A stretch of DNA of 64,000 nucleotides from a virus (IMGVR_UViG_3300021185_003145:1-64000); one strand, 5' to 3'. Shown: positions 7,519-63,999, counted from the stretch's first letter. The notes: generated by a model not told the origin, from the letters alone. Numbers and translations are program-made.

Positions 7519-8651
7519 TATCTCTGTACCGCTCTGTTTGCTTTTGTAAAGTATTCTCTACCAACTAGTTTTACGTCACCTTTTGGATCTGAAAGAACGT
7601 AACCTTCGCCGCCTTCTCCACTACCAATAGTTGCTTTAACATCTGCATCTTGTTTTTCAAACTGGTCAATAATATCATCTTTAACAATTTGTATACCTCG
7701 TACAATACGCCACATACTTTTAAAACCGTTAATATTTTCATTAATATGTTGCATTATACGAGCTTGTTTAACACCACTAACTTTACTTGTTGACATCCAC
7801 TTTTCAAAATCATCACCTAAGCCGTCCATAGTTGTATCAACTTTACTGTTTATGTAAGCATAGAATATTTTGCTTAAATCTTTCATCTTAAGTTGTTCTA
7901 GTACTGCCTTGTCTAATAACTTGTCAATTTCAGTTGCACTACTATTTACTACTGATTCGAGTTGTTTAATTTTTGAATCATCGATACTTGGTGCTTTTTG
8001 TACTGTTACCGGTGGTATTACTAATACTTCGTTACCTTGCATAGTGTTCATATCTGCTTGTGTTAGTTTACGATCAATACCGTTTTCATCCATGTGTAAG
8101 TGTATAACAATACCGTATGTACTTTGTGCTATTCTTTTACCAATATCACTGTCTGCTTTAACTGTATATGTTACAATATTTGGAGTAAACACAAACGAGT
8201 CTTGTTTTTTAGGAGGCATTGTAAAATATAATAAATCACCTTTGTAGTACCCACGAAAGTCTTCAGGCATTGCTTTTTCAAAAGCCATAAAAGCATTTTT
8301 CATTGCACCTGCTAATTGTTTAAAGCCGTCTGCTTTTTCAGGAATTTTTGCACCAGGTCTGTTTAGTATCATTTGTGCTACTGCATCACCACTTTTTGCT
8401 TTGCCATCATAACCTTTTGCTACAAATCCGCCTTTGTCTGTTAGGATAAAATCACCAGACTCATCACGACCGAATATAATAGCAGGGCTTCCATCCCATT
8501 TAATTGTGACATCACTATGCCCTCCTTGTTCGAGTCTTTTTAATGACTCTAAAGTACGTTTAGCACCCTTACTACCTTCCCAAAAGATAATATCTTCTGC
8601 ATGTTGTATACGGGCCTCAACTGCTTCAATTATAAATTCAAGTGCTTTCAT
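7518..8651 (-). CDS. Ligase-like covalent nucleotidyltransferase (DUF6267-like)
   Basis: Motif I-like KWDG, III-like YKGDLLY, IV-like EGYV, V-like VKLV. Confidence 0.7.
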   Translation of the reverse strand: MKALEFIIEAVEARIQHAEDIIFWEGSKGAKRTLESLKRLEQGGHSDVTIKWDGSPAIIFGRDESGDFILTDKGGFVAKGYDGKAKSGDAVAQMILNRPGAKIPEKADGFKQLAGAMKNAFMAFEKAMPEDFRGYYKGDLLYFTMPPKKQDSFVFTPNIVTYTVKADSDIGKRIAQSTYGIVIHLHMDENGIDRKLTQADMNTMQGNEVLVIPPVTVQKAPSIDDSKIKQLESVVNSSATEIDKLLDKAVLEQLKMKDLSKIFYAYINSKVDTTMDGLGDDFEKWMSTSKVSGVKQARIMQHINENINGFKSMWRIVRGIQIVKDDIIDQFEKQDADVKATIGSGEGGEGYVLSDPKGDVKLVGREYFTKANRAVQR

Positions 8652-9490
8652 ACGCCTGCCAATTCTAATGTTCTATTGAACTCTTCGTTAAGTTCTGGAG
8701 GTATTCCAGCATCTTTAATAACACCGTTTTCTTCAAAACCTTTTCTAATTTTTTCTACTACATCTGCTGGATAGTTCTTTTTAACTGCATTCCATAATGT
8801 TTCAAAACTATTTAAATCTTTTGGTCCATCTAATCCTAATGCTTTAGCAATACCTTTAGGATCTTTAATAGGATCTATAATTTTTTCGTTACTGTTTTTC
8901 TTAGTATATCCATCTCCGCTTTTCTTTGGAACCGGTGTTCTTCTGATACGGATTAAGCCATCTGTAGGTGACCACATCCAACGTTCACTTGTAACCGAAC
9001 GCCCGTCATCAATTTTTTCGTCACTATCCTTACGTTGATATACTGCGGCAATTGATGCTATCATAATATTACGATAAACACCTTTGTATTTGGACTCTGT
9101 CTCACTAGGTGAGTGGTAATAAGTCTTTAACCAACCTGGATCTCCAGGCATAAAATCTACTTGTACATAACCTGTACGTGGTCTTCCATCTGACTTAGAT
9201 TTGTCAAAATCTTCTATTTTTATCTTTGTCATTATAACACTAGACTTTGCTAAGTCTAATACTTCTGGCATTGCTTTTAATTTTTCTACAAATGCAGGAA
9301 TGTCGTCAGCAGGTATGTTTAGTGCAACATCAATGTCGCCACTGAATTGTCTTTTACCTACACTGCCAAGTACATTATTTTCTAGGTCAATACCAAGTTT
9401 ACTTTGTAGTAACTTTAATGTTGGTTCAATTTCATCTATATGAATTGCACCTACACCGGGCATTGCACCTCCTTCACTTAGTCTTTTCAT
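8648..9490 (-). CDS. Pol-beta superfamily nucleotidyltransferase
   Basis: LGSVGK...SGDIDV signature plus downstream VQVDFM aspartate. Confidence 0.75.
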   Translation of the reverse strand: MKRLSEGGAMPGVGAIHIDEIEPTLKLLQSKLGIDLENNVLGSVGKRQFSGDIDVALNIPADDIPAFVEKLKAMPEVLDLAKSSVIMTKIKIEDFDKSKSDGRPRTGYVQVDFMPGDPGWLKTYYHSPSETESKYKGVYRNIMIASIAAVYQRKDSDEKIDDGRSVTSERWMWSPTDGLIRIRRTPVPKKSGDGYTKKNSNEKIIDPIKDPKGIAKALGLDGPKDLNSFETLWNAVKKNYPADVVEKIRKGFEENGVIKDAGIPPELNEEFNRTLELAGV

Positions 9491-10101
9491 TCAACTAATC
9501 CGTCATCTATCGCTTTTTGTGTTGCTGGACCTTGCTCTGCTTTAGGTAGTGGTTGTTGCCTTGCATCAACCCACATAGCACCTTTCCAAGTAATTTTGCC
9601 TTTACCTGGCCATTCCATTTCAGCACCTATTTTAACTGTACTAGAAAAGTCTTTTGGATCAAAATCTGGTTCTTTATCGTCAACAAATTTACCATATAAT
9701 TTTTCAATCATTGCTACTGATTTTGGGTCTTTCTTAAAAATTAATGGTGCTATTTGTAATAATGACTTTCCTCCAGCAAAACCTGTTTTAGGCTTTAAGT
9801 AAGTGTTTTGACAACCAAGTAAAACAAAAATTTTAATAAGTTTATCCATTGTGTTGTTAGTAACTTTACTATAAATTGCAGGGGCGTCTATTACTCTTGA
9901 TAAAGGTCTATCAAAGTAATGCTCATACCATTGTTCAAAGGCTACTTTTGGTTGCTTACTAAAAGCATCTCCGTTTTGAGCAATAACATTTTCAAGGTTT
10001 TCCATTGCTTTCGCATAAAAAAGTTTTGTTTTCTGAGCAAGAGCTTTTACTTCTTTTTCGTCATCACTTGAAAATAATCCAAATAGTTCATTTAAATTCA
10101 T
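9487..10101 (-). CDS. Hypothetical protein
   Basis: MNLNELF N-terminus; ATGA overlaps. Confidence 0.65.
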   Translation of the reverse strand: MNLNELFGLFSSDDEKEVKALAQKTKLFYAKAMENLENVIAQNGDAFSKQPKVAFEQWYEHYFDRPLSRVIDAPAIYSKVTNNTMDKLIKIFVLLGCQNTYLKPKTGFAGGKSLLQIAPLIFKKDPKSVAMIEKLYGKFVDDKEPDFDPKDFSSTVKIGAEMEWPGKGKITWKGAMWVDARQQPLPKAEQGPATQKAIDDGLVE

Positions 10102-10337
10102 TTTAATTTTTTCAACCCGTTTGTAAATTTTTTGCTGTCTTGTCTTTTAATTGCCAACAATAACTTGCGTTCCATGTCTTCGGCTATTTGATTATCGTAA
10201 CTATTACGAATTAATTCTATCAAATTCTTCGCACTGGCAATTAAATGCTCTGCACGTGATTCGATTAAATGTACACGGTCTCTTGGTATTGCAATGCTAT
10301 CTAATTCTTCTAATAGTTTGCGTGTTTTACGTTGCAC
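10098..10337 (-). CDS. Hypothetical helical protein
   Basis: GGAG RBS before GTG start; late TAAATA at ~10364. Confidence 0.7.
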   Translation of the reverse strand: MQRKTRKLLEELDSIAIPRDRVHLIESRAEHLIASAKNLIELIRNSYDNQIAEDMERKLLLAIKRQDSKKFTNGLKKLK

Positions 10338-10419: not shown

Positions 10420-11184
10420 ATGAAAGCAGATTTCCACCATTCCACACTAGCATCTTTGGCATATCAAGACCAAAGTCCTGAAATAGATGCACAATTTAAA
10501 GAACTTGGCTATGAGGATATTAGATTTATTAATATCGACGGTGCTCAAGTATACTTAGTTAGCAATAAAAACCATGTTGCAATAGCATTTAGAGGAACAG
10601 AAGTTACTCAAATGAGTGATGTTGTTGCAGACTTAAAAGCCTGGAAGAAAAGAAGTAAAGTAGCAGGTAAAGTACATGACGGATTTTATGATGAAGTTGA
10701 AAAAGTTTGGAAATCATTAATATTTGAATTGACAACTTTAGGTGTAGGAAAGTCTCTATCTATTTGTGGACATAGTTTAGGTGCTGCAATGGCAACTATA
10801 TGTGCGGCTCGTTTGTGTGCTTTAGATTATAAATTAGTACTATATACATATGGTTCTCCAAGGGTAGGTAATAGGACTTTTGTTAAAAGTATCACATGTT
10901 GTCACCATAGATGGGTAAACAATAATGATGCAGTTACCAAAGTGCCTATGGCAATAATGTTTTTTAAACATCATGGAAAACTACATTATTTAAATCACTA
11001 TGGACTTGTTCGTAACGGACTTAATCCATGGCAAAGATTTAAAGACGGCTGGAGAGGTAGACTGGCTGCTTGGAAAAAATGTGAACCTTTTGATGGTGCA
11101 AGAGATCATTCTATTGGCAAATACGTTGATAATATCGGCAAGCCAGAAAATGATATTGAACTAAAAAGTAGTTGCACTAACTAG
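10420..11184 (+). CDS. Class 3 lipase (alpha/beta hydrolase)
   Basis: AFRGTE, VHDGF, GHSLG nucleophile motif, YGSPRVG, NNNDAV, C-terminal DH. Confidence 0.92.
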   Translation: MKADFHHSTLASLAYQDQSPEIDAQFKELGYEDIRFINIDGAQVYLVSNKNHVAIAFRGTEVTQMSDVVADLKAWKKRSKVAGKVHDGFYDEVEKVWKSLIFELTTLGVGKSLSICGHSLGAAMATICAARLCALDYKLVLYTYGSPRVGNRTFVKSITCCHHRWVNNNDAVTKVPMAIMFFKHHGKLHYLNHYGLVRNGLNPWQRFKDGWRGRLAAWKKCEPFDGARDHSIGKYVDNIGKPENDIELKSSCTN

Positions 11185-12559
11185 ACTTTATACCTGCTAA
11201 CATATCTTTTAACTTACTACTTTGTACACTTGCAGTAACTTTTGCTTCAGGTTGATAATCCTGTGTATTATCTGCTCCTGACTTAATCTTGTTCATCATA
11301 GAAGTTGCAACTGGTTGTTGTCCTCCATCATCTTCTGCTAAGTCTCTAATTCTTAAACTGTTAATATCAAATTCTAAATCAACTTTTTGTCCGACACCGC
11401 TACTACTTCTAGTTTTCATAAACTGTATTTGATATCTTCCACGTTCACGCATTGCTCTACTTGTAAAAATACCAATAACATTATCAGCAGTATTAATCTT
11501 ACTAATACCACCAGCAATATGCGAATGATCAAACTCTATTTCTTCAACTGCCGCTCTGTTTAACTGCGAAGCAGTTACCATAATAATATTAAACTCTCTT
11601 GCTAAGTTACGCAATTCTTCACTAACATACTTGTCTTTAATAAACTGATCGTTTGGCGATACTTTAGCACTAACTGGCATCAATAAATCCAAGTAGTCAA
11701 CACATATAAAATCAATTTGCTTTCCTGTTTGTATTTGTAACTCTTTTAAGTATGCTCGCATATCATTAATGTTACTTTGTGCTGGCATATATTTTATTCT
11801 TAAACTACCTGCTTTTTTACTAGTCATTCCTAGTTTCATTTCAAGTGTATCAATATCTTTAAAAATGTCTTTACTTGGAATATCTGTAACCATGCTATCT
11901 AGTCTCATAGCACATAAGCCTTCACTAAGTTCAAGTGTTACATACACTCCTGTAAGTCCTGCTAGTGCCCAATTAATAGATAAGTTTTGCATAAACAAAC
12001 TCTTACCACTACCACTACCACCTGCAAATATATTAAGTTCACCTTTGTTAAATCCACCAAACAATTTCCTATCTAGTGCAGGCCAGCCTGTGCTAATTTG
12101 TCCATTACCATCTTTTAAGCTCATTAGTCGATCACGTGGATTCTCCCAATACTCAATACCCAAGTCATTTGTTAAACTAATTTGTACTGCATCTTTAATA
12201 AGTTTCTCAACTGGCTCATACTCACCTTTTTCAATCATATCTGCACTTTTTAAAATAGCACGTTCTAGTTCTTGCTTTTTAGTAAACTGCTCAAACTCTG
12301 TCATGAACCATTCATAGTGTCCATCATTTAAGTTTTCAACTGGCTTCAGTTGCATATTACATGCCGCATTTACTTGTTCATACGCAGGCATAGTTGCATG
12401 ATCTGTTGTGTGTTTTTCTATAAACTTTGCCGCTTCTCTTAGACTCCTATCAAAGTTTTCTGCATTAAAAATGTTTTGCACTCTAACAAATGTTTGTGCA
12501 TCATTTAACATCATTTCTAAAAATAATCTTTGTAAGTCTGTTGTGTAATTAGTTGCCAA
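11177..12559 (-). CDS. gp41: Replicative DnaB-like helicase (T4 gp41-like)
   Basis: GGSGSGKS, VTLELSE, VDYLDL, TASQLNR, MKTRSS. Confidence 0.92.
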   Translation of the reverse strand: MATNYTTDLQRLFLEMMLNDAQTFVRVQNIFNAENFDRSLREAAKFIEKHTTDHATMPAYEQVNAACNMQLKPVENLNDGHYEWFMTEFEQFTKKQELERAILKSADMIEKGEYEPVEKLIKDAVQISLTNDLGIEYWENPRDRLMSLKDGNGQISTGWPALDRKLFGGFNKGELNIFAGGSGSGKSLFMQNLSINWALAGLTGVYVTLELSEGLCAMRLDSMVTDIPSKDIFKDIDTLEMKLGMTSKKAGSLRIKYMPAQSNINDMRAYLKELQIQTGKQIDFICVDYLDLLMPVSAKVSPNDQFIKDKYVSEELRNLAREFNIIMVTASQLNRAAVEEIEFDHSHIAGGISKINTADNVIGIFTSRAMRERGRYQIQFMKTRSSSGVGQKVDLEFDINSLRIRDLAEDDGGQQPVATSMMNKIKSGADNTQDYQPEAKVTASVQSSKLKDMLAGIKSS

Positions 12560-17179: not shown

Positions 17180-17660
17180 CTACAATTTCTGAAGCTCTAC
17201 TAATTTCTTCTACAAAATAAGCACATTTTGGTTTTTCACCGTCGTGTAACGGTACTGCTAATAACTGTCCTGGTTTCAACTTTGGAAAGTACCAACGTAC
17301 ATCTTGATATACATCTACAATTTCTACAGGAGCAAACTCGGGCCTAAAGTCACTACGTGGATTGTATAAGAATGCATGAAATCCTCTGTCATTTAAACTT
17401 GTAAGTGGAATAACTTCTAAGTCTCCGTGATCTGGTTCGCCAATAAGCATCATCCAATCACGTGGCATTCTAACTGTGTGTTTACCAATTTTCAATACTA
17501 GTGCAGGACTGTTAAAACTTTGTAAAAATATTAATGGTATAAAAAAGTAATCAGGTTCCTTTGGATTACTGTTATCTAATACTGCAAACCTCATATCATC
17601 TACTTCTTCAGGTAGATCATTCATTGAGAATGTTGTGTTCTCTAAAGTTAATATCTGCAT
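17160..17660 (-). CDS. Hypothetical phage protein
   Basis: 166 aa, TAATG coupling. Confidence 0.75.
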   Translation of the reverse strand: MQILTLENTTFSMNDLPEEVDDMRFAVLDNSNPKEPDYFFIPLIFLQSFNSPALVLKIGKHTVRMPRDWMMLIGEPDHGDLEVIPLTSLNDRGFHAFLYNPRSDFRPEFAPVEIVDVYQDVRWYFPKLKPGQLLAVPLHDGEKPKCAYFVEEISRASEIVDVEKVW

Positions 17661-18250
17661 TAATAAACACTCTTTATTTTGTCAGCAATGCCATACTTAA
17701 CTGCCTCTTTGGCACTAAGCCATTTATCTTCCGGTGGAAGAAGTATTTCACGAATAACTTTTTCTTTGAGTCCTGTACATTTTTTATAATGTTCTAGCAT
17801 ACGTTCTGTACTAAGTTCAAACTCACGTACTCTTGCAAATAGTTCATGTTCTTTACCACTACTGCCCCAACTATATTGGTGTGATAAGATACTTGTATTT
17901 GGCGTAAGTATGCGTCTGCCTTTTTCACCTGCCATAAATGTTAATACGCCACAACTTGCAATAAGTCCTAACCCAACTGTTTTAATTGGAATAGCACTGC
18001 CTTTCATTGTGTCAATAAGGGCAAAGGCTGCATGAACACTACCGCCAGGACTATTAATAATCAGTGTTAGTTCCTTTGGACGTTCGTTACTTGGAAGTAA
18101 ATTCTTTTCTATAATCCATTGTACAATAGGCTTGGTAGAGTCAAATGTAAACCCGTCTGCCATGTAATAGATTCCTGTATTCCACATAAGTTCGCCAGGC
18201 TGACGTGACTGTGGAGATGATGCTGGTGCTTTTGCTTTGTTTTTACTCAT
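17660..18250 (-). CDS. clpP: ClpP-family serine protease
   Basis: INSPGGSV, GLIASCG (Ser), LSHQ (His), EDKWLSAKEAVKYGIAD (Asp). Confidence 0.9.
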   Translation of the reverse strand: MSKNKAKAPASSPQSRQPGELMWNTGIYYMADGFTFDSTKPIVQWIIEKNLLPSNERPKELTLIINSPGGSVHAAFALIDTMKGSAIPIKTVGLGLIASCGVLTFMAGEKGRRILTPNTSILSHQYSWGSSGKEHELFARVREFELSTERMLEHYKKCTGLKEKVIREILLPPEDKWLSAKEAVKYGIADKIKSVY

Positions 18251-22205: not shown

Positions 22206-22552
22206 TAGTCTAACCTACTTCCTGCATAAGCACGAAAACCGTACTTTTTAAATACATCAGCAGCCGCAATAGCACCTGCTTCTAATGTATCAACATTTTG
22301 ACATCCGTATCTTGAAGGATTCCACATATTAATTGAACCAGTATAATCCTTAGTTAAACCTGCTTCTTTAAAAGCCTTACCCATTTTAGTATTCATCTTA
22401 ATACCATAAATGTTAACCCAAGCAAAACCACATGCATAAGCATCTTCACCACCAAGTTCTTTCTTAAAAAACTTATCAGCGGCAATATAAGCGGCATCTT
22501 TTGCTTCTTGTATAATAGTTGGAATTTGATTTTCTGTAACTGAAACTGTCAT
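22205..22552 (-). CDS. Early hypothetical protein
   Basis: AGGAG RBS and own promoter; ACGFAWV motif. Confidence 0.8.
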   Translation of the reverse strand: MTVSVTENQIPTIIQEAKDAAYIAADKFFKKELGGEDAYACGFAWVNIYGIKMNTKMGKAFKEAGLTKDYTGSINMWNPSRYGCQNVDTLEAGAIAAADVFKKYGFRAYAGSRLD

Positions 22553-22583
22553 TGTCGACTCCTTTTGTTTAACTTACTATTAT

Positions 22584-22611
22584 ATAATAGCATCTATATA
22601 CAATCTGTCAA
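22584..22611 (-). promoter_or_regulatory. Early promoter
   Basis: AAAAAGG-TTGACA-N16-TATTAT with extended TG. Confidence 0.8.
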
Positions 22612-22669
22612 CCTTTTTCTGTCAGAAAAATGCCTAATATGTAAGAAAAATACATACTAGGCACTATTT

Positions 22670-22984
22670 CTATGATAAAGGAATTATCAAACCTTTTTGC
22701 TTCATAACAGCAGTGGCTTTTGCTGCTTCAAGTTTAGCATTAGACGGATCATTTTGGTCACCGTTATACTTTTTTGAAGTTTTGTTGTAATTCTTATTTT
22801 GCATAAGAGTGTATACAAACAAGTTATTAATATCTTGTCGGGTAACTAATTTACCCCCAAAAGTATTAACAATAGCAGATAACACAGGACCGAGCCTACT
22901 ATTATCCATTGTTGGTATGGTACTCTTTACAGTATTAATATTATTACAAACTGTTACAACTTCGTTCTTCTTTGATTTAGACAT
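22670..22984 (-). CDS. Early hypothetical basic protein (start reassigned to MSKSKK)
   Basis: AAAGGAG RBS 6 nt before ATG 22984. Confidence 0.7.
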   Translation of the reverse strand: MSKSKKNEVVTVCNNINTVKSTIPTMDNSRLGPVLSAIVNTFGGKLVTRQDINNLFVYTLMQNKNYNKTSKKYNGDQNDPSNAKLEAAKATAVMKQKGLIIPLS

Positions 22985-23004
22985 TTCTGTCTCCTTTATA
23001 TACA

Positions 23005-23055
23005 GGGCGATAATAAGGAAATAAGTTATGATGTCGCCCAAAAGCATCTAACTTA
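23005..23055 (-). ncRNA. Candidate H-type pseudoknot 5' leader
   Basis: Stems TAAGTTA-GATG / CATC-A-TAACTTA and GGGCGA / TCGCCC are interleaved. Confidence 0.55.
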
Positions 23056-23062
23056 CTGTTTT

Positions 23063-23090
23063 ATAATAACATCTTTGCTATATTTGTCAA
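23063..23090 (-). promoter_or_regulatory. Early promoter
   Basis: AAAAGG-TTGACA-N16-TATTAT. Confidence 0.8.
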
Positions 23091-23593
23091 CCTTTTATTT
23101 GCTTTTGTGCTATTTTAAATAAAGGTGTTTGTTTAACAGTATCTAACATACCGTTAAGTATCAGTTGCTTTTCTAAAAAATACACTTTTGCAAAGCCTGG
23201 ATCGTTTTTACCAATGCAAGCCGTGTTATCTACCAAATCTGCTAGTTTGATAATTTGTGCTTCTATCGGTGCAGACAATATATGCTTACGATCTATTGCT
23301 TTACGAACTGCACGATTACCATCTTCAAGTGTACTTTGATCAGTTAACCAATAAACCAAGTCAGCAATAGTAGTTCCAAACTTAATGCAAATATCATCTA
23401 GTGTAAAATCTGTATCTTCAACTACATCATGTAACAATGCCGCGGCAACTTGCTCAGTTGTTCCACCGTGATCATATACTAATTGAGCAACATCAATAGT
23501 GTGTGTTACATATGGAAGACCAGTATACTTACGTTTCTGATCTCCGTGGGCAACTACAGCAAATTTTAATGCTTTAGTTACTATTTTATCCAT
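23087..23593 (-). CDS. HD-domain (SpoT/Mesh1-like) small alarmone hydrolase
   Basis: AHGDQKRKYTGLPYVTH, ALLHDVVEDT, IKLADLVDN; start probably MDKIV at 23593. Confidence 0.85.
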   Translation of the reverse strand: MDKIVTKALKFAVVAHGDQKRKYTGLPYVTHTIDVAQLVYDHGGTTEQVAAALLHDVVEDTDFTLDDICIKFGTTIADLVYWLTDQSTLEDGNRAVRKAIDRKHILSAPIEAQIIKLADLVDNTACIGKNDPGFAKVYFLEKQLILNGMLDTVKQTPLFKIAQKQIKG

Positions 23594-23958
23594 TATGCAA
23601 TTCCTGTCCAACGTACAACTGATGTGTTCTTTGCATCAGTAAAAACATTACCACGTTTAAAGTTTGTTGCTGGTGCATTCCAACCGGCTGCTTTAAGCAT
23701 ATCGCCTTCTACAAAGCCTTTAGTTGCTTCTTTAACAATAAAGCCACTAACACTACCACCACCAAATGAACTTTTGTGGTCTTTTTTAATAAGTTTAATA
23801 TACTTTTGACCTTCTTTAATTTCAACTTCCCAATTATCAACAACTTCTTGCATGTATCCTGACAATGGTTTTGCACCACTATGTGTTGCCCAATCAATAT
23901 AACTTTGCTTCATTGTTTCAACTACTGTTTCACATGCTTCTAAAAGTTCTGCGTTCAT
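23593..23958 (-). CDS. Early phage protein
   Basis: GQKYIKL..GDMLKAAGWNAPA..RGNV motif typical of small phage proteins; own promoter. Confidence 0.8.
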   Translation of the reverse strand: MNAELLEACETVVETMKQSYIDWATHSGAKPLSGYMQEVVDNWEVEIKEGQKYIKLIKKDHKSSFGGGSVSGFIVKEATKGFVEGDMLKAAGWNAPATNFKRGNVFTDAKNTSVVRWTGIA

Positions 23959-23992
23959 AATGTTTACTTCCTTTTTGTTAACTTACTATTAC

Positions 23993-24020
23993 ATAATAGC
24001 ACTATTACAAGTTTTGTCAA
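23993..24020 (-). promoter_or_regulatory. Early promoter
   Basis: AAAAAGG-TTGACA-N16-TATTAT. Confidence 0.8.
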
Positions 24021-24033
24021 CCTTTTTAGTCAC

Positions 24034-24057
24034 AAAAAAACCCTTGTAAAACAAGGG
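24034..24057 (-). terminator. Intrinsic terminator
   Basis: CCCTTGT/ACAAGGG stem followed by T7 on minus strand. Confidence 0.7.
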
Positions 24058-24077
24058 CTTAAAAAGTTTTTTATTTT

Positions 24078-24269
24078 TTAATAATCTAGTTCAAATTTTT
24101 TGTTAGTATTTGCTTCACAGATGCTAATAATTTGTAACTTTTCTTCAAAATCATAATACTCAGCAAGTAGTACTTTTGCAACTTCTGTCTTATCTTCTGC
24201 CATCATTAACACACTTCGTTCGTCTGTGTTTTTATCAGTATTAAAGTTTACAATGTATCTGTTTTTCAT
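24078..24269 (-). CDS. Small early hypothetical protein
   Basis: GAGGAG RBS; TTGACA-N17-TATAGT promoter at 24296-24324. Confidence 0.75.
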   Translation of the reverse strand: MKNRYIVNFNTDKNTDERSVLMMAEDKTEVAKVLLAEYYDFEEKLQIISICEANTNKKFELDY

Positions 24270-24327
24270 ACTATTCTCCTCTATGTATAAGTTATACTAT
24301 ACATTAGAAAAACACAGATGTCAAGAC

Positions 24328-30171: not shown

Positions 30172-32577
30172 TTACTTTAATCCGGCTAAGCCGAGTATTC
30201 TATCTATTTCTGATTGGTAATCAATATCTTCATTTTTTACTGCAAGATCATCATCACCATCACCATCTAAATCTACCATAATCCAGTTTTCACCTTTTGG
30301 ATCTTGACTATCATGTTGACAATCTGTAGTTGGCTCGCCTAACATATCACCACACTCTTTACATTTTAGGCTACATGCTTCGTTAATACTTTCGTCCATT
30401 GGCTCTTCTGAATCTTCGTCTACTTTGTCTTCTTTTTTAGGAAGTTTATCTTTAATTAGACCTGCAATCTTCAGCATAGTTTCAAGTTCTTTATCACCTA
30501 GTGCGTTTTTCTGACTTTGTAAATCTGCTTCTGCTTTTTTAAGTGATTGTTCTAAATCTTCATCTACTTCTACTACTTTTTCATCCATTAGTCCAAGCTC
30601 GTCTAGCTCATCACTTATATACTGTACTGGATCTCCATCTCTGGCTTTCATAGTATCGTATGGCATATCTTCTGAATAGTAATCAAACAAATCCATATAC
30701 AAATCAGTATCGTATACTGACATTAAATCATTACTCATTTGCATCTTTTTAGTTTCTGCAGGATGTTTTTTAAGTATATTAATAACATTTTCTTTGTCAG
30801 TATTTCTGGCTACTACTTGTGGGTAATCAGTATCATCTTCACTAACTGAACCAGCGTCATAATCAACTGCTACCATTAGCCTTTTTATTAATTGTTCATC
30901 AATATCATAACGTTGAATATTTGCTAATACCCATCTTTGTATGATTGGTCTTGCATCTGCATTTGGATCTTCGTCGCTTAACTCTCCAAGATCGTCATAT
31001 AACTCATCATCACCTACAATGTTGCCTAATGCATTACTGGCATTTTGTGCATCTGCTCCAACTGGTAAAGGTTTTTGCATAAGTTTTTCTAATTCTTCTG
31101 CAGCCTCTTCTGTATCTGGAATTGCCCAAGTACCTTCAATTAGATTGTTAGCCCAACTTTCTAATTGATTGTCTTCAGTTTTTAATTTTTTCTTTGCTTT
31201 TGGTTCTGACATCTTAACGTTGCCTTTGAGATACTTTAGTGCAAGACCCATTGCCGCATTATATTGCTTGGCATTATCAGTATCAAGATCACCTAACGCA
31301 TTAGCAAGTTCACTATCTACAGCGTTTAACTCTAAATAGTCAATTATCTTCATAATTATGCTTCTATTTTTTTGATCTTTTTCCTGGCCACTGCTCTTAA
31401 CTATTTCAAGCTCTGCATTAAGTTCTGCTTGTGCTCCTGGATTATTTTGTACTTCAATAGCATCTGATGATTTTGCAAACTTCATTAAGTTATCTGCTCT
31501 GTTGGCAAGTTTTGCATCTTGCTCTTTTTCAAATTCATCATAATCCTTATCTGCTTGTGATACAGCCGGCTCTGCTTCTGCTACTGCTTCGTTATCATGT
31601 TTTTCATTCATTGCTTTAATTCCTTGGGCTAAACTTGGTAAAACAGAATCCACAATATTGTCTCTTTCAATGCGAATTAGTTTACTACGAATATCATCTA
31701 AGTCGGCTTGTTCAATAGTTGACTCTGTAGGCTCATATTGCTGTACATAAGTCTTATATCCTTTTGGACCTGATAATGTTTTTAAAGTTGCAACTAAACC
31801 AGTTGCACGTTGCTTTGCTTGTTCAATAATATTTTGTGCTTCATCTTGCTCTGCAAAATTATCTGCACGTTTAAATGCTTTTACAAACTTTTTAAGATCA
31901 ATAACTTCCTGATTCATTTCATGTATGTGTTGTCCAAGTTCATCTACTTGATTTCCACCATGATTAACATGTTGTGCCATTGCTCTTGCACCTGCTAAAA
32001 ATCTAAAAGGAAACTTTGTGCGTTCTTTTGCTGAATTTTCAATAAACAAACTGTGTATTTGTCTTGTTCTTGAACCACGTTTTTCTTCGTCTACTGGCTT
32101 AGAGTGCTTTATAACTAAACGTACTTCACCAATGTTTTGATAACTGGTTTTAAGACTTCCGTGTAGTTTGCTCTCGTTAACATCTTCAACTGTGTCACTT
32201 ACATCATTTGTTTTAATATAAGCATAATCTTTTTTATCTAATTGTTGCTTGCCGATATTTCTAACATCAAAACCCATTAAGTTTCTTTTTGCAAAATATC
32301 TTAATTCTTTTAAAAATGTGTACCAATCTTTTTTATCATCATAACGCATGTCTTCAGTGATGTTATTGTTGTAATATACAACTAGTGCATCTGGATCAAC
32401 AATGTTAACTGTAACACTTCCATATGTTTTTCCACTACCTGTATACTCAAGTGTAAAAATTCTACCTGCGTCTGGCTCGATAGTACTCTGTGCCTGTTCG
32501 TTTGCAATAGTTAACTTGTCAAACTTCTTGGCTAATATACTGCTTAAATCTGTCGCTATTTTATTGTGTATTTGCAT
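30172..32577 (-). CDS. Large acidic multi-domain protein, putative prohead core/internal protein
   Basis: 801 aa; repeated x-x-E putative cleavage sites; ends RILGLAGLK; leaderless late start. Confidence 0.7.
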   Translation of the reverse strand: MQIHNKIATDLSSILAKKFDKLTIANEQAQSTIEPDAGRIFTLEYTGSGKTYGSVTVNIVDPDALVVYYNNNITEDMRYDDKKDWYTFLKELRYFAKRNLMGFDVRNIGKQQLDKKDYAYIKTNDVSDTVEDVNESKLHGSLKTSYQNIGEVRLVIKHSKPVDEEKRGSRTRQIHSLFIENSAKERTKFPFRFLAGARAMAQHVNHGGNQVDELGQHIHEMNQEVIDLKKFVKAFKRADNFAEQDEAQNIIEQAKQRATGLVATLKTLSGPKGYKTYVQQYEPTESTIEQADLDDIRSKLIRIERDNIVDSVLPSLAQGIKAMNEKHDNEAVAEAEPAVSQADKDYDEFEKEQDAKLANRADNLMKFAKSSDAIEVQNNPGAQAELNAELEIVKSSGQEKDQKNRSIIMKIIDYLELNAVDSELANALGDLDTDNAKQYNAAMGLALKYLKGNVKMSEPKAKKKLKTEDNQLESWANNLIEGTWAIPDTEEAAEELEKLMQKPLPVGADAQNASNALGNIVGDDELYDDLGELSDEDPNADARPIIQRWVLANIQRYDIDEQLIKRLMVAVDYDAGSVSEDDTDYPQVVARNTDKENVINILKKHPAETKKMQMSNDLMSVYDTDLYMDLFDYYSEDMPYDTMKARDGDPVQYISDELDELGLMDEKVVEVDEDLEQSLKKAEADLQSQKNALGDKELETMLKIAGLIKDKLPKKEDKVDEDSEEPMDESINEACSLKCKECGDMLGEPTTDCQHDSQDPKGENWIMVDLDGDGDDDLAVKNEDIDYQSEIDRILGLAGLK

Positions 32578-34608: not shown

Positions 34609-35163
34609 GTGAGTGATTGCTTAGTATTAAATGGTAACTATCAGCCGTTGAGTTTACTACCATTAAGTGTAGTAGGCTGGCAACAGGCTGTTAAATTATA
34701 TTTCTTAGATCGGGTTAGGATCATTGAAACGTATGATGACTGGCAAGTACACAGTCCTAATATGGATTTTAAAGTACCTGCTCTTGTGGCATTACGAAAA
34801 TACTACCCTGTGCAAAAACAAATAAGATTCACTCGTTATAATTTATTTTTACGTGATATGTATCAGTGTCAATATTGTGCTGATACTTTTCCTACTATTG
34901 AATTAACTGTTGACCATGTACTTCCACTAAGCAAAGGTGGAAAAACAAATTGGCAAAATTGTGTTAGTGCTTGTAAAAAATGTAATACAAAAAAAGGTAA
35001 TACTGTTGGGCAAATGATTCCTATCAGAAAAACGTTTACACCGGATTACTTTAACTTATCTAGTATTAGACGCAAGAGACCATTTACTGTACGACACAGT
35101 AGTTGGTTAGAATATATTGGAAACGTAGATGACTTTAAGTTTAGTAAGGATTCTCACCAGTAA
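34609..35163 (+). CDS. HNH endonuclease
   Basis: RD...CQYC...TVDHVLP...GG...W.N.V.AC..CN..K. Confidence 0.92.
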   Translation: MSDCLVLNGNYQPLSLLPLSVVGWQQAVKLYFLDRVRIIETYDDWQVHSPNMDFKVPALVALRKYYPVQKQIRFTRYNLFLRDMYQCQYCADTFPTIELTVDHVLPLSKGGKTNWQNCVSACKKCNTKKGNTVGQMIPIRKTFTPDYFNLSSIRRKRPFTVRHSSWLEYIGNVDDFKFSKDSHQ

Positions 35164-35347
35164 GATGTGTTTGTGCAAACCATAATTTAAACCATTCAGG
35201 TGTTCCTGGTTTAATATTTTTCTTCTTCATATGTTTAGATTTTTTATCTCCCACATAAGAGAGATTCTCACTATAAGGGGTCAAACCTTTATACGATTCA
35301 ACCCCTGCTAGTTTTTTTAAATTTTTTAACTCTTCTTCAAAAGTCAT
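35141..35347 (-). CDS. Small hypothetical protein
   Basis: ELKNLKKLAGV...IKPGTPEWFKLWF. Confidence 0.7.
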   Translation of the reverse strand: MTFEEELKNLKKLAGVESYKGLTPYSENLSYVGDKKSKHMKKKNIKPGTPEWFKLWFAQTHLTGENPY

Positions 35348-35348: not shown

Positions 35349-36503
35349 TTACTTCGACATAAGTGCCTGTAGTTGGTCTGCCAATTTTGCTGCCAGTGGG
35401 TTATCCCCCGGACCCTCTTTTCTAGTGTGGGCTTTTGGCCCGTTTAGTCCTCCGGACAATTTGTTTAATTGCATATCCGCATCCATGTAATCTTCGTCTG
35501 GTGAGTTAGAATACTCGTCCAGTGCTTTTGTTGCCTGTGTATCTGCCTGTAAGCCCGCTAAGGACATAAGTGATGCTAAGTCATCGACTGCAACTTCTAC
35601 TGTTTCTTGTACGTCTGCTTCTTCAACAGTTTCTGCTTCTTCTACAGATTCACCAATGCCGTACATAAACAACTTGCTGTATACTTCTGGATGATCTTGT
35701 TTGATTGCATATTTAATGTCTTGCATAAATTTTTCTCTCATTGCGGTATCACCTGAAGAAGCCATAGCGACAATATCATCACCATCAGCATTAGCATTTT
35801 TCATAAGATTTTCTAATGCTTCGATTGAATCCTCAATATCATCAATCATAATATATGAATAATCATACGGGTCACCTTGCATTAATTCTCTTTCTACTTC
35901 TTCGTCACTCATGCCTTTTGCTTTGAGTTCTGCTTTAGCCTCAGCCTCTCCATCATAGTACTCTTTTTGATCTGCTTTATAAGACATTAAAAGTTTTTTT
36001 AAGGCAGGTGCAACCATATCAAGTGTTACACTATCTCTATCAATATTTGATAATTCTTCTTCACGACCAGTGTTAGTAACTTCTTCAGATGCTTCATCAA
36101 CAACTTCTTCTGTTGCTACTTCATCAGATTCAAAACTAGCATTCATCTCATGGTGTCTACGATAGTCATCTACAAACTCTTTTATTTGATCTGCATCTAA
36201 GAAACGTACTATTTCTTGGAATATAGGATGATCTGGATCGCAACCTACTTCATCACATAAGTCCATAATAGGATCAGCGGCAGTACCTACTGCTTCTGTT
36301 TCAACGCTTTCATTTGATTCATTTGCTTCTTTAGAATCGTCCCAAAATTTGCCGGCTTCTTCAGCACTACCAAATGTTTTTGAATGCATGTCAATAAAAT
36401 CTTTTCTGCTATTATCTTGTGCTTCAATATCTAAATCAGACATTCTACTTTCAGATACATCTTTTTCCATGCCTGAATATTTTAATAAGGTTTCTAAATC
36501 CAT
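35349..36503 (-). CDS. Highly acidic protein, putative prohead core/internal protein
   Basis: 384 aa, E/D-rich, internal LMSLAGL. Confidence 0.65.
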   Translation of the reverse strand: MDLETLLKYSGMEKDVSESRMSDLDIEAQDNSRKDFIDMHSKTFGSAEEAGKFWDDSKEANESNESVETEAVGTAADPIMDLCDEVGCDPDHPIFQEIVRFLDADQIKEFVDDYRRHHEMNASFESDEVATEEVVDEASEEVTNTGREEELSNIDRDSVTLDMVAPALKKLLMSYKADQKEYYDGEAEAKAELKAKGMSDEEVERELMQGDPYDYSYIMIDDIEDSIEALENLMKNANADGDDIVAMASSGDTAMREKFMQDIKYAIKQDHPEVYSKLFMYGIGESVEEAETVEEADVQETVEVAVDDLASLMSLAGLQADTQATKALDEYSNSPDEDYMDADMQLNKLSGGLNGPKAHTRKEGPGDNPLAAKLADQLQALMSK

Positions 36504-36504: not shown

Positions 36505-37014
36505 TTACTTTCCTGCTTTTTCTTTTTTGGCTATTTCTACTTCCGGAGTACCACGCTCTAATTCTTTAAGCATGTTCTCGTTATATTTGTCACCAAATGT
36601 TGGGTCATCTTTACTATCTTCATAGTCGCTATCAAGTAAAGGCTCATATTCTTTTTCTTTGGCATTAGCCGCTTCTTCACGTGCAATTTCTTCCGGGTGC
36701 TCAGCGTTAATAACAACTAAGTGCGACCCTGAAAGTCCAGCATATTCGGCTAACTCATTTCTTAATATTGCAGAAGTACAAGGATAATTTACAGTAACGT
36801 CAATCATGCTAACTTCTGAATTCTTTAATGTTTGGAAATCCATTGGATGTTCCTGAATAGGAGTTGTTTTTGGCTTACTCATGTCAGTTACACTGTACTT
36901 TCCGAGCACCATTTCAATTCTATCAATGTGCTGATCTTCAAGAGTGCCGGCATATTTTATACGGAATTTGTATTCTTTTTTACTTTCCGTTAAGTATTGT
37001 TGAAATGTTTTCAT
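36505..37014 (-). CDS. Putative head protein with T4 CTS-like N-terminus
   Basis: MKTFQQYLTE-S; late promoter at ~37043. Confidence 0.7.
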   Translation of the reverse strand: MKTFQQYLTESKKEYKFRIKYAGTLEDQHIDRIEMVLGKYSVTDMSKPKTTPIQEHPMDFQTLKNSEVSMIDVTVNYPCTSAILRNELAEYAGLSGSHLVVINAEHPEEIAREEAANAKEKEYEPLLDSDYEDSKDDPTFGDKYNENMLKELERGTPEVEIAKKEKAGK

Positions 37015-46802: not shown

Positions 46803-46842
46803 CCTTTATCTTTATATAAATATAGTATAACAAGGATTTCAC

Positions 46843-60479: not shown

Positions 60480-60480
60480 T

Positions 60481-62302: not shown

Positions 62303-63526
62303 TTAACTGAATGATAGGTTAGCAACTGAAATGCTACCTAAGTAATCAGCCGCGTTACCAAGAGAGTTTGATGTGTTTGTTAGTGTCTGATAACCATAAC
62401 GTGTCATGAAACCAACTACTGGCTCTAGACTTGCTGGATCAAGCACAACACCTGAACTCATTAGTGGAACGTATGGGCAGTAAAATGCTGCTGCATCTGT
62501 TTCACTTGAACCTTTGTAACCAACTAGTACTGCTGTACTGTCGCCTGCATATGAGTCTACATAGATTCTCATTGAAGAGTTTAATGTACCAACCATCTTT
62601 GTGTTAGTTGGTGCTTCAAAAGTACCTTCTGTAGTTCTAGCAAATGCTGATGTTGATGCACTTTGTAGTACTGTAAGTGCCTGTGGACTTACAACTGCCC
62701 AGTTACCTGCGCCTCTACGTGTTCTTTGTGCAATCTTGTTACCTACACGATTCATTAATACTGCTAATGCGGCATGCTCATCACCTACGTATGTAGCTGT
62801 ACCACTTACTGCAGCCTGATCGTATGCGGCTGTGTTGGCGCCAAATGCGGAACCTGTACCAGCAGCTGCTAATGCTCTTAGACTTACAAGAATCTCTTGG
62901 TCGATTTCAGCAGTAATTTCTTGTGCTAATGCAGCCATAATTTCTGCTTCTACATCGATACCGTGGATGCTTTGTGCGTCTTGAGCTGATTCAAAAGTCC
63001 AACGAGCTGATAACTTACGAGTTTTCGCAGTTACTGTCTCTTTTAGAATTTCGATACTCATTGTGTTACCTGCTTTACCTTCTAAGTTAGCAGTTGCATC
63101 TGGGGCACCACTTGTACCACTATCGATACCTGAGTAACCTGCTGCGATTGCAGCTGGTGATAATGCTTCATCACCTGCACCTAGGTTTCCACCTGTTGAG
63201 TCTTGTAATTGTGTACCAGCATGGTCTGCCGCTGCATTGTACTTAACTCTTAGTGTGTGGATCTGTGAAACAGGTCCTGCCATTGGCTGAACACCAACGA
63301 TTTCGTTAGCAATAACAGTTGGCATTACACGTCTGATTACAGGTAAAATTACCTTGTTTAGTACACCAATGTCGCCGGCTGCAGTTGCACCTGCTGTTGC
63401 TGCTTCACTGATATATCTTTTGGTGTTTTCAAGAACAACACCCATATTCTTTCGCTTAGAACCTGCGAGGCCTTCTAAAAGGGCATCTTTTGTTTCGTCC
63501 CAGCGACTTTCGATTAAGTTAGACAT
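62303..63526 (-). CDS. gp23: Major capsid protein (gp23)
   Basis: IVGVQPMAGP, AKTRKLSARWT.E.AQD...HG, EITAEIDQE, FYCPYVPL, GFMTRYG. Confidence 0.97.
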   Translation of the reverse strand: MSNLIESRWDETKDALLEGLAGSKRKNMGVVLENTKRYISEAATAGATAAGDIGVLNKVILPVIRRVMPTVIANEIVGVQPMAGPVSQIHTLRVKYNAAADHAGTQLQDSTGGNLGAGDEALSPAAIAAGYSGIDSGTSGAPDATANLEGKAGNTMSIEILKETVTAKTRKLSARWTFESAQDAQSIHGIDVEAEIMAALAQEITAEIDQEILVSLRALAAAGTGSAFGANTAAYDQAAVSGTATYVGDEHAALAVLMNRVGNKIAQRTRRGAGNWAVVSPQALTVLQSASTSAFARTTEGTFEAPTNTKMVGTLNSSMRIYVDSYAGDSTAVLVGYKGSSETDAAAFYCPYVPLMSSGVVLDPASLEPVVGFMTRYGYQTLTNTSNSLGNAADYLGSISVANLSFS

Positions 63527-63552
63527 TTTTATCGTCTCCTAGTTAAAATGTA

Positions 63553-63999
63553 TTATAAACCTGCTAAACGCTTGATTTCGATGATTTTGCCCTCATCTGA
63601 ATCCTGCTTGGTTTCTTTTTTATTACCAGTTACTTCTTTAGTTTCTGCTAAAACTTTATTAGTTGTTTTAGTGTCATTCTTAAGAACTGCTGGCAAATAC
63701 TTGTTAAATGATGCATCTAAGCGATCAGTTGTAATTGACTCAAGTAATGAACCCATTACTTCTTTTTGATCTTTATTTAAAGGTGCCATCATCTTTGATA
63801 ACATTGAATCGCGGGCAATACGATCTTTAATTCTACGAATTTCGGCTTCTTTACTTTCAACTAGTACTGATTTCTCATCAATAGTTTTTGTAGATTCTGC
63901 CAACTTTGCATTTACTTCTTCAACTTGCTTTTGTAAGTCTTTGATATCTGCGTTTTCATTTAGATGTGAAGTTGCAAACTCTGCCGCAAAAGTTTCAAA
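63553..63999 (-). CDS. gp22: Prohead core scaffold protein (gp22-like), 3' part
   Basis: Frame open to window end (FETFAAEF...); coiled coil; directly upstream of gp23. Confidence 0.8.
   Translation of the reverse strand, partial: FETFAAEFATSHLNENADIKDLQKQVEEVNAKLAESTKTIDEKSVLVESKEAEIRRIKDRIARDSMLSKMMAPLNKDQKEVMGSLLESITTDRLDASFNKYLPAVLKNDTKTTNKVLAETKEVTGNKKETKQDSDEGKIIEIKRLAGL

Follow-up and report, generated by a model that had tools for sequence, protein, structure and literature searches.

A scaffold C-terminal helix recurring in unrelated late proteins of a T4-type jumbo phage: a candidate prohead-docking tag

The gp22-like scaffold of an uncultured jumbo phage ends in a short peptide, IIEIKRLAGL, and the same 10-mer recurs in four further late gene families, those of a 384-aa, a 68-aa, an 801-aa and a 280-aa protein, being kept in the orthologues of each. 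As the first-pass annotation had anticipated, only late or virion gene families have the motif, and mass spectrometry places its carriers or their orthologues in the virions of two cultured relatives, PA5oct and RaK2. Taken together, its portability, its late and virion restriction, the presence of carriers in virions and the alternation of the tail with a leader in one enzyme family fit a prohead-loading tag copied from the scaffold. We accordingly favor, with a probability of roughly 0.55, the reading that the motif is a prohead-docking helix borrowed from the scaffold, which would act as an address label into the young capsid.

The scaffold tail and its conservation

The window (the whole stretch of 64,000 nucleotides analyzed) is part of a 91.7-kb contig of a jumbo phage with a T4-type capsid, kin of PA5oct, RaK2 and 121Q. 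The habitat of the phage is the ocean. The 3' part of the scaffold gene lies within the window (63553..64000, minus strand; PHROG 10922), the whole gene occupying contig positions 63553-64635 and encoding 360 aa. Its tag (63556-63585, minus strand) is directly followed by the stop codon, and the protein is 39% identical to the PA5oct scaffold, whose C-terminus reads VEELRRLAGIK. The major capsid protein, of the gp23 type (62303..63526, minus strand; Pfam Gp23, E=3.6e-93), is 64% identical to the PA5oct major head protein and is one candidate partner for the helix.

The scaffold tail follows the pattern hydrophobic-x-x-hydrophobic-basic-basic-L-A/S-G-hydrophobic, with zero to three residues thereafter; 116 of 120 close homologues retain it. 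A more distant set of 150 representatives (31-88% identity) includes 129 full-length versions (at least 330 aa), of which 107 have [AS]G-hydrophobic within the last 12 residues and 93 the strict form of the tail within the last nine. The tail is also seen in PA5oct, Atu_ph07, RaK2, 121Q and three long uncultured contigs; T4 gp22 ends in ...AKVASRF, without a LAG motif. Judging from these alignments, the LAG tail is a hallmark of the scaffold family.

Recurrence of the motif in unrelated late proteins

The peptides quoted by the first-pass annotation are all present on the minus strand, in the proteins to which it had assigned them. The very acidic 384-aa protein (35349..36503, minus strand) has two copies, an internal LASLMSLAGL (35550-35579, minus strand) and a degenerate N-terminal LETLLKYSGM (36468-36497, minus strand), the N-terminal start of its orthologues being MSDLERILKLSGL. 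It groups with RaK2 ORF050, and its gene has the same position as that of PA5oct gp203, which has two copies as well (INDILRLAGV and LDEISKLAGI). In RaK2 ORF050 and its 121Q homologue, which have a GDNPL C-region in common, both copies stand as conserved islands amid gap-rich acidic sequence; despite the same gene position, PA5oct gp203 has no detectable likeness to these two proteins beyond the motif. The 68-aa protein (35141..35347, minus strand) starts MTFEEE, followed by the tag LKNLKKLAGV (35300-35329, minus strand), which is kept in its homologues (MKLDEIYKLQRLAGI in L044 and LTKLKTLAGI in the 244-kb relative G006).

The 801-aa protein (30172..32577, minus strand; PHROG 13484, 'virion structural protein'), the N-terminal 320 aa of which match PA5oct gp206, bears an internal LETMLKIAGL (30457-30486, minus strand) and a C-terminal IDRILGLAGL (30178-30207, minus strand) with a single K before the stop. 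The C-termini of its orthologues include INKILGLAGLK and QRMLELAGLT, and those of more distant ones, PA5oct gp206 among them, are other amphipathic helices of non-LAG type. The fourth carrier is a 280-aa Pol-beta-like nucleotidyltransferase (8648..9490, minus strand), with a weak NTP_transf_2 Atlas match and, in the alignment, invariant G42 S43 ... D52 I53 D54; its tag, FNRTLELAGV (8651-8680, minus strand), is C-terminal.

The claim that the peptide is portable is thus borne out by N-terminal, internal and C-terminal sites in unrelated proteins. The motif is retained in orthologues at 40-90% identity, and it lies between acidic, low-complexity flanks such as a linear docking motif would have. 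It may be asked whether such a pattern could be structural only, i.e., a helix with a Gly-based C-cap and no addressing function, which recurs via mosaic paralogues and as one of the few ordered elements tolerated in acidic disordered proteins, its likeness to the scaffold being a matter of convergence. Ala-Gly-hydrophobic is a common end for any helix, and the 384-aa family and the C-halves of the 801-aa orthologues do have homologous segments in common; the replacement of the motif by non-LAG helices in relatives also speaks for this account. However, the 280-aa enzyme, the 68-aa protein and the scaffold are related neither to each other nor to the acidic family, yet all bear the motif, which persists as an island where its surroundings have diverged, and the conservation of the scaffold tail is far above that of a mere helix end. 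We therefore regard the structural-only account as unlikely.

Specificity of the motif

The proteome scan proposed in the first-pass annotation, with [LIM]xx[LIMT]xx[LI]AG[LVI], gives five matches in the 107 ORFs of the contig versus 0.19 expected, a count reached by none of 1000 residue shuffles; this excess over chance holds, but the regex was taken from these very sequences and the test is partly circular. Likewise, [LI]AG[LVI] occurs in the last eight residues of four ORFs versus 0.07 expected (0 of 1000 shuffles), one of the four, a helicase, being judged a chance match. The same regex finds three matches in PA5oct versus 0.44 expected, with seven of 300 shuffles reaching three. A sample of related loci, retrieved through two carrier families (1675 ORFs, 385,146 aa), yields 52 strict matches, comprising 45 in the five families, two further clear copies and five chance-like ones; the helicase, primase and other replication genes sampled along with them have none. 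Across the genomes of RaK2 and 121Q, the broad regex stands at chance level (six and eight matches, respectively, per ~108,000 aa each), the motif being carried only by the scaffold and one family, and this want of a genome-wide excess counts in favor of a purely structural helix.

Several look-alikes were set aside. The helicase, of the DnaB type by Pfam DnaB_C, ends in LKDMLAGIKSS (SKLKDMLAGI, 11189..11218, minus strand), and three of the 45 C-termini of its orthologues read AGI or SGL, the remainder being LLNSLKK, KLKSLLNSLKK or similar; we consider it a chance look-alike outside the system, and its internal WALAGL belongs to the folded DnaB core. That a protein with no virion link also ends in a similar amphipathic helix is a further point for the structural-only account. 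The DALAGV of a 343-aa protein is lost in orthologues, the SSGIAGV of a 1142-aa protein is without helix context, and for the QKELAGV of a 777-aa protein a search returned no orthologue by which to judge it.

It is scarcely credible that the recurrence reflects chance or a signal at the DNA level, such as ribosome-binding sites for downstream genes placed in the last codons. The stop codon of the 280-aa gene does overlap the start codon of the next gene (GCAGGCGTATGA), with a weak AGG just upstream of that start. However, the codons differ from one copy to every other, which indicates a peptide-level signal, and the ribosome site downstream of the scaffold gene is a separate one past the stop codon; the shuffle counts, the retention of the motif in orthologues and the conservation of the scaffold tail contradict this explanation as well.

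Late expression and presence in virions

The carrier operons are preceded by TAAATA late-type promoter words, like the structural genes, whereas early genes have TTGACA/TATAAT-type sites. The late operon that holds the 384-aa and 68-aa carriers begins with the gene of a 169-aa protein (36505..37014, minus strand; PHROG 14802, virion structural protein, and PHROG 2667, internal head protein), with TAAATA 34 nt upstream. This protein has the leader MKTFQQYLTE, which resembles the T4 capsid-targeting sequence (CTS), and its place in the operon of the carriers implies that the phage has conventional N-terminal leaders alongside the LAG tag.

For RaK2 ORF050 the annotation is 'virion structural protein'. 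In PA5oct, the carriers gp203, with its two copies, and gp235 are positive by ESI-MS/MS, as are gp206, gp231 and gp202, the orthologues of the 801-aa, 280-aa and 169-aa proteins; such virion data do not tell head proteins from tail proteins, and the list also includes metabolic enzymes, ribonucleotide reductase and thymidylate synthase among them. In total, 93 gene products are given as detected in PA5oct virions in the available text of PMC7318152.

Were the motif a C-terminal tag for Clp-type proteases, for degradation or for an adaptor, the carriers would be expected to meet a different fate. The window does encode a ClpP-like protein (17660-18250; Pfam ClpP, E=2.5e-32), ClpX, ClpA, ClpS and ClpP are annotated in PA5oct, ssrA tags terminate in LAA, and three true copies of the motif lie at, or at most one residue from, the C-terminus. 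An ssrA-like degron acts at a free C-terminus and leads to degradation; here, many conserved copies are N-terminal or internal, and the carriers accumulate in virions rather than being removed. Moreover, the removal of T4-type scaffolds is the work of the prohead protease and not of Clp, according to the text available from PMC9958956. This explanation is hence very improbable.

Somewhat less remote, though still improbable, is the idea that the helix serves the gp21-like prohead protease (contig positions 64641-65276) by recruiting its substrates or flagging them for processing, either as an exosite or as a mark for the clipping of tags, in place of docking to shell or core. T4 gp21 cleaves after L/I-x-E, with the scaffold and internal proteins among its substrates in the available text of PMC9026906, and the protease of this phage itself ends in an amphipathic basic helix, ALRLIKELKLRS. 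A [LIVM]-x-E is found within about 12 residues downstream of 15 of 24 non-terminal copies versus 30% of control windows from the same proteins, an excess that is weak because the copies include non-independent orthologues and the flanks are Glu-rich. On the other hand, the motif has no conserved Glu, nothing cleavable follows it at three C-termini, and an exosite accounts no better than docking for the leader alternation described below.

Alternation of tail and leader in the nucleotidyltransferase family

The 56 unique homologues of the nucleotidyltransferase, which are phylogenetically non-independent, fall into versions with a short N-terminus and a 13-30-aa C-terminal tail helix (37), versions with a long leader (MNLFELTQ...SE-GG) or an N-terminal fusion and no tail (15) and versions with both (4); none of the 56 is without both leader and tail. 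This alternation has a Fisher p of 2e-10, uncorrected for kinship among the 56, and the tree suggests at least three independent switches between tail and leader. By the same comparison, the C-terminal tail is apparently interchangeable with a T4-CTS-like N-terminal leader in this family, a pattern, with 0 of 56 missing both, that runs against a purely structural helix.

Many of these tails are of related non-LAG form, e.g., WFRTLLDIVK, RRLKELLP and YMRKLA, and the LAG letters are thus dispensable. Phage G002 has a scaffold ending in ...IKRLAGL, yet its nucleotidyltransferase homologue has the tail WFRVIMDMIK, and strict co-variation between scaffold and carriers is absent, Ala and Ser forms occurring within one phage. 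The first-pass proposal of a capsid cargo tag stands as regards a portable, late- or virion-confined motif with virion-linked carriers; the LAG letters, however, are not obligatory.

Comparison with known targeting systems

Scaffold C-terminal helices that bind coat protein are known from P22, where gp8 has a helix-turn-helix, and from herpesviruses, where the scaffold tail is also present on the protease precursor. By bearing the scaffold's tail, a second herpesvirus protein gains entry to the procapsid, and engineered P22 capsids load enzymes fused to a segment of the P22 scaffold. The LAG tail resembles these elements in lying at the extreme C-terminus of the scaffold, in being conserved there in close, distant and cultured relatives and in having basic beside hydrophobic residues. 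It differs in that the tail is copied onto separate, unrelated genes, rather than spread by nested genes or engineering, and in that one protein can carry several copies, internal ones included; in this case coat binding is a prediction.

The CTS of the T4 internal proteins IPII and IPIII (Mullaney & Black 1996, as described in the available text of PMC9958956 and PMC9026906) is likewise a short peptide by which unrelated proteins enter the core of a T4-type prohead, with the proteins found in the virion, loading being predicted for the present phage. This phage also bears T4-like leaders (MKTFQQYLTE, MKALEFIIEA and others), and LAG tail and T4-like leader replace each other in one enzyme family. 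However, the T4 CTS, as far as these texts describe it, is a peptide of about 10 residues found only at N-termini, where it ends in a gp21 site and is clipped off, and copying of the scaffold tail is not reported for it there. The LAG helix has another sequence, is the scaffold's own C-terminus and occurs C-terminally (scaffold, 280-aa and 801-aa proteins), internally (384-aa and 801-aa proteins) and N-terminally (68-aa family and 384-aa orthologues). The review PMC9026906, in its available text, raises prohead targeting by terminal propeptides besides the N-terminal CTS, with reference to the C-terminal propeptides of T4 gp21 and Alt, and describes no motif shared with the scaffold; the C-terminus of T4 gp21 (...YMALAEAMKKAL) is non-LAG. 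As a type, the LAG helix would be a new form of T4-style capsid targeting.

The earlier comparison with encapsulin cargo peptides holds in form only. Family 1 encapsulin targeting peptides, e.g., GSLxIGSLK and LTVGSLRR in the available text of PMC10960027, are short and C-terminal, with hydrophobics spaced around small residues and often basic residues thereafter (compare RILGLAGLK), and bind in a pocket lining the inside of an HK97-fold shell, the fold class to which the gp23 shell belongs (Pfam Gp23). By contrast, in that text the encapsulin peptide binds in extended form, encapsulins are scaffold-free and their cargo genes adjoin the shell gene, whereas the LAG motif is predicted to be helical, has the core L-A/S-G-hydrophobic rather than the Gly-Ser order of G-S-L, is not restricted to C-termini and lies in cargo genes ~27-55 kb from that of gp23.

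A proposed role in prohead loading

Under the favored docking reading, the 10-mer would form a short amphipathic helix with an Ala/Ser-Gly-hydrophobic cap, hydrophobic-x-(R/K/N)-hydrophobic-x-x-L-(A/S)-G-(L/I/V/M), which at the extreme C-terminus of the scaffold would be the scaffold's own docking element. A few other late proteins would bear copies at their start, middle or end, namely the acidic 384-aa/gp203/ORF050 family, the 68-aa family, the 801-aa/gp206 family and, in this lineage, also the 280-aa nucleotidyltransferase. During prohead building these copies would bind at the site of the scaffold tail, be it on the inside of the gp23 shell or on the scaffold core, and their carriers would thereby become enclosed, the tag doing the same job as the T4-type N-terminal leader on neighboring genes. 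In this phage, the helical fold, the binding, the choice of partner and the packaging of the carriers are inferred, and the data suit a dock on the scaffold core as well as one on the gp23 inner surface.

A more specific version, which we put forward tentatively and rate well below the general docking reading, would have the LAG helix as the element by which the scaffold fits a pocket on the inside of the HK97-fold gp23 shell, with cargo competing for the same pocket, and as a position-independent, multi-copy element evolutionarily interchangeable with the T4-type N-terminal CTS. Were it true, the helix would be a natural, phage-borne counterpart of the encapsulin targeting peptides, common to the scaffold family of PA5oct, RaK2, 121Q, Atu_ph07 and hundreds of marine lineages.

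The scaffold tail across the family

The window takes in the first 64 kb of a viral contig (91,666 bases), whose gp23-type major capsid protein (62303-63526, minus strand; Pfam Gp23, E=3.6e-93) is 61-65% identical to those of Phosso, PA5oct, GAP32 and other jumbo-phage relatives. BLAST comparison reveals a gene order common to the contig and PA5oct over long stretches, covering the helicase and primase, the virion-protein block, sheath, portal, protease, scaffold and capsid. The 360-aa gp22-like scaffold (contig 63553-64635, minus strand, extending beyond the window end; PHROG 10922), which is 39% identical to that of PA5oct, ends in IIEIKRLAGL, i.e., a peptide of about 10 residues closing with L-A/S-G-hydrophobic (hereinafter the LAG motif).

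This tail is retained throughout the family. The ending [IV][IV]x[IL][KRQ][KR]LAG[LMI], plus 0-2 residues, is shared by 116 of the 120 best matches in a 5.8-billion-protein collection (53-100% identity). A more distant set comprised 150 representatives from a 50%-clustered library (31-88% identity), of which 21 shorter than 330 aa were excluded as fragments; in 107 of the remaining 129, [AS]G-hydrophobic falls within 12 residues of the C-terminus, and in 93 the strict form falls within 9. The commonest endings are LAGI (41) and LAGL (39), preceded mostly by RR, RK, KR or KK. In cultured relatives the tail reads VEELRRLAGIK (PA5oct), INDLKRLAGIKK (Atu_ph07), LEELSILSGIIKK (RaK2) and LKELDVLSGINKK (121Q). 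On this record of conservation, the LAG tail is a hallmark of the scaffold family. The C-terminus of T4 gp22 (...AKVASRF) is without the motif. The T4 prohead core protein gp68 (gene 68) ends in ...LKRRKALGLS, in which A-L-G-L comes after a basic run, loosely recalling [KR][KR]LAGL; T4 gp22 has nothing comparable.

Two further head genes lie outside the window. The gp21-like prohead protease (contig 64641-65276) carries a C-terminal amphipathic basic helix, YLRDEALRLIKELKLRS (SREIIKLISELKK in PA5oct), which resembles the LAG motif in pattern, yet is not LAG, and may serve to load the protease itself. The other gene (contig 65288-66052), situated between those of the portal and the protease, encodes a 254-aa hyper-acidic protein with long stretches of E, D, A and V that is probably an additional core protein; its PA5oct orthologue, gp151, is ESI-MS/MS positive.

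Recurrence of the motif in other proteins

The first-pass annotation had proposed that the scaffold peptide is reused as a cargo-loading tag by unrelated proteins, namely those of 384, 68, 801 and 280 aa (a nucleotidyltransferase). Every peptide it quoted is present in the window, on the minus strand, with coordinates confirmed by translation, and its regular expression, [LIM]xx[LIMT]xx[LI]AG[LVI], finds 5 matches in the 107 contig ORFs against 0.19 expected, with none of 1000 residue shuffles reaching 5. Likewise, [LI]AG[LVI] occurs within the last 8 residues of 4 of these ORFs against 0.07 expected (0/1000 shuffles with at least 4). As the expression derives from the same contig sequences, it is other genomes that provide the real test. 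A position matrix built from scaffold tails alone proved over-specific, retrieving just the scaffold in the contig, and the scaffold, gp235 and gp203 amid weak noise in PA5oct; it was replaced by regular expressions with shuffle controls.

An origin at the DNA level, by which ribosome sites or promoters within the last codons would impose the repeated letters, is ruled out by the different codons in every copy (e.g., TTG GCA GGC GTA, TTA GCC GGA TTA and CTA GCA GGG GTT for L-A-G-hydrophobic). Further, the ribosome site downstream of the scaffold gene sits past the scaffold stop codon, and hence the signal is at the level of the protein.

Retention in orthologues was taken as the criterion for a true copy. 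The LASLMSLAGL copy of the 384-aa protein is present in five relatives, and its orthologues start with MSDLERILKLSGL, where the window phage has a degenerate LETLLKYSGM. Relatives of the 68-aa protein display LKNLKKLAGV, IYKLQRLAGI and LTKLKTLAGI, and orthologues of the 801-aa protein end in INKILGLAGLK or QRMLELAGLT, with an internal LDTLKALSGL in one. The tail of the 280-aa protein is retained in close relatives and several further lineages, LAG-type tails in this family including LELAGL, RIRELAGL, RIQELAGM..., RIKELSGL... and RILQLSGY.... Judged by such retention, the LAG feature is real and conserved. Searches against Pfam, PHROGs and solved-structure sequences gave no match for the 280-aa, 384-aa or 68-aa protein.

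The same criterion led to the rejection of other candidates. The C-terminal copy in the helicase was dropped, with AGI/SGL in 3 of 45 orthologue C-termini and LLNSLKK or similar in the others, and its internal WALAGL was dropped as lying within the folded DnaB core. A conserved C-terminal helix particular to this DnaB-type family (window 11177-12559, minus strand), AKLKSLLNSLKK, presumably serves a replication partner; in the lineage of the window phage it reads LKDMLAGIKSS by chance. DALAGV in a 343-aa protein is not retained in orthologues, and a 243-aa protein ending in KEAGL is a non-member, its PA5oct orthologue ending in TEAKL. For ELAGV in a 777-aa tape-measure-like protein, the comparison yielded no orthologue.

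In three settings, a small Cys-rich module (CxxC ... C.C ... DPKG.NW) is joined to a LAG tail through an acidic linker: the C-terminus of the 801-aa protein (window 30175-30450), the interior of a 675-aa protein in a 244-kb relative, and a standalone 65-aa ORF ending in RMLKLAGLQ (related locus L011:3436-3633).

Restriction to late gene families

The related loci retrieved via the 384-aa and 280-aa proteins comprise 97 loci with 1675 ORFs (385,146 aa). The strict expression matches 52 times, with 25 in the 384-aa and 10 in the 280-aa family, both counts being inflated by the design of the retrieval. Another 6 matches belong to the 68-aa family, 3 to the 801-aa family and 1 to a scaffold; the 7 others are unassigned, and 2 of them are clear copies (LERILNLAGV). 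The informative part of this count is the absence of the motif outside the carrier families: the co-sampled helicase, primase and other replication genes of the 97 loci contain zero strict matches. In the 244-kb relative (326 ORFs), the motif is carried by the scaffold, three times by the acidic 675-aa protein, and by proteins of 130 aa and 80 aa, the latter belonging to the 68-aa family, with one membrane-like chance match in addition; the original expression finds 4 matches there against about 0.5 by chance, an estimate scaled from the residue-shuffle results.

In descriptive terms, without a control, the word TAAATA heads the carrier operons of the contig, as it does the sheath, portal and fibre genes, and early-looking genes have TTGACA...TATAAT-type sites. 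TAAATA lies 25-60 nt upstream of the start codon in structural operons, and near-consensus TTGACA ... TATTAT/TATAAT words precede early-looking genes at window 22552-24300 and 46749-46843. The exact T4 late promoter box, TATAAATA, is not over-represented (7 matches vs 9.4 expected). A ClpP-like gene (window 17660-18250, minus strand; Pfam CLP_protease, E=2.5e-32) lies in a region of replication-type genes, at a great distance from those of the head; ClpP, ClpX, ClpA and ClpS are all encoded by PA5oct.

Carriers in virions of cultured relatives

For PA5oct virions, PMC7318152 reports 93 gene products identified by ESI-MS/MS. The clear non-scaffold carriers of this phage are gp203, which has an N-terminal INDILRLAGV and a central LDEISKLAGI, and gp235, with IDRIKKLAGI. 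Both proteins are flagged as detected in the PA5oct GenBank record, as are gp206 and gp231, the orthologues of the 801-aa and 280-aa carriers, and gp202, that of a 169-aa operon neighbour. A doubtful fourth match, an ATPase, is likewise flagged. With about 20% of PA5oct genes flagged, the chance probability is about 0.04 for two independent matches and about 0.002 for four, both values being optimistic on account of gene clustering.

In RaK2 and 121Q, a genome-wide scan with a broad expression gives no excess (6 and 8 matches), and the motif is confined to the scaffold and one family. The RaK2 member, ORF050 (PHROG 15988), is annotated as a virion structural protein and is the only convincing non-scaffold carrier in that phage. 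It and its 121Q homologue retain two copies (ARMMELAGQ/SRMLALAGQ and LKRMTQLSGI/FSRMLSLAGI) as islands within gap-rich acidic sequence, and both have in common with the 384-aa protein of the window a GDNPL-containing C-terminal region. The very acidic protein with two tags is hence a component conserved across the whole clade.

Exchange of leader and tail in the nucleotidyltransferase family

Across 34 aligned homologues, the 280-aa protein has invariant G42 S43 ... D52 I53 D54, a pattern that fits a Pol-beta-type nucleotidyltransferase; an Atlas lead to that family is weak. [quoted passage not shown] Most products of the late-gene block (window 2462-10337, minus strand) start with such leaders, including MELNDLNRVK and MNFIKDELVEA, and a ligase-like KWDG motif is present in a 377-aa member (7518-8651). 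PA5oct gp226-gp241 follow the same gene order and are mostly ESI-MS/MS positive.

Leaders and tails were classed in 56 unique homologues around a conserved EGGAMPGVG. In 37, at most 13 residues precede this anchor and a predicted C-terminal helix of 13-30 residues is present, of the L-x-G type in 14 and other types in 23. A further 15 have at their N-terminus either a leader of 17-33 residues (MNLFELTQSKAAQSEVISE, for example) or a fused domain, with at most 8 residues after the core. Four have both leader and tail, and none has neither (Fisher p 2e-10 over these 56 homologues, which are related sequences). A quick tree placing 50 of the 56 suggests at least three switches; the other 6, which did not match the anchor pattern, were assigned by visual inspection. 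The strongest case for the tail doing the job of a capsid-targeting leader comes from this exchange. Alignable tails in the family also include NRIVELMRAMQ, LRRLKELLP and DWFRTLLDIVK, and one compared genome (G002) combines a scaffold ending in ...IKRLAGL with a nucleotidyltransferase-homologue tail WFRVIMDMIK, showing that the letters LAG themselves are inessential. A search for strict co-variation between scaffold and cargo tails was negative.

A putative docking tag and its analogues

In P22 and herpesviruses, the scaffold tail docks at the inner face of the coat. We consider it somewhat better than an even bet (roughly 0.55) that the LAG peptide is a scaffold-derived prohead-docking tag; such a putative tag would represent a novel form of T4-type capsid targeting. 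It would form an amphipathic helix with a small-Gly-hydrophobic cap within acidic disordered sequence, and tagged proteins would dock where the scaffold tail does. The P22 and herpesvirus scaffolds suggest, by analogy, the inner face of the coat as that site; docking to the scaffold core would fit the data equally well. Downstream of non-terminal copies, [LIVM]-x-E occurs within about 12 residues in 15 of 24 cases vs 30% of control windows, which hints weakly at clipping of the N-terminal and internal tags.

The localization of proteins to the T4 scaffolding core "remains mysterious" according to a recent head review (PMC9958956); in the accounts given there and in PMC9026906, it is unexplained save for the N-terminal CTS of IPII and IPIII, and the terminal propeptides of gp21 and Alt are raised as possible targeting elements. 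The first-pass comparison with encapsulin cargo peptides stands in respect of form, RILGLAGLK resembling the GSLxIGSLK and LTVGSLRR described in PMC10960027, but the likeness ends there.

A literature search yielded no description of the LAG motif, its literal strings matching only drug names and unrelated proteins. The present analysis adds the breadth of the motif over the scaffold family, the removal of a false helicase member, the tie to cultured phages characterized by mass spectrometry, and the leader-or-tail rule in the nucleotidyltransferase family. A 10-residue peptide common to the scaffold tail and virion proteins provides a concrete handle on core localization, and PA5oct, RaK2 and 121Q are growable phages in which its binding partner, deletion and transfer to a reporter could be studied. 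If the docking-tag reading is true, the peptide could offer a compact cargo-loading tag for large T4-type capsids, and sequence alone would mark which enzymes and unknown proteins in uncultured giant phages probably travel inside the capsid and enter the host, the candidates here including the nucleotidyltransferase and its ligase-like neighbour with a CTS-like leader.
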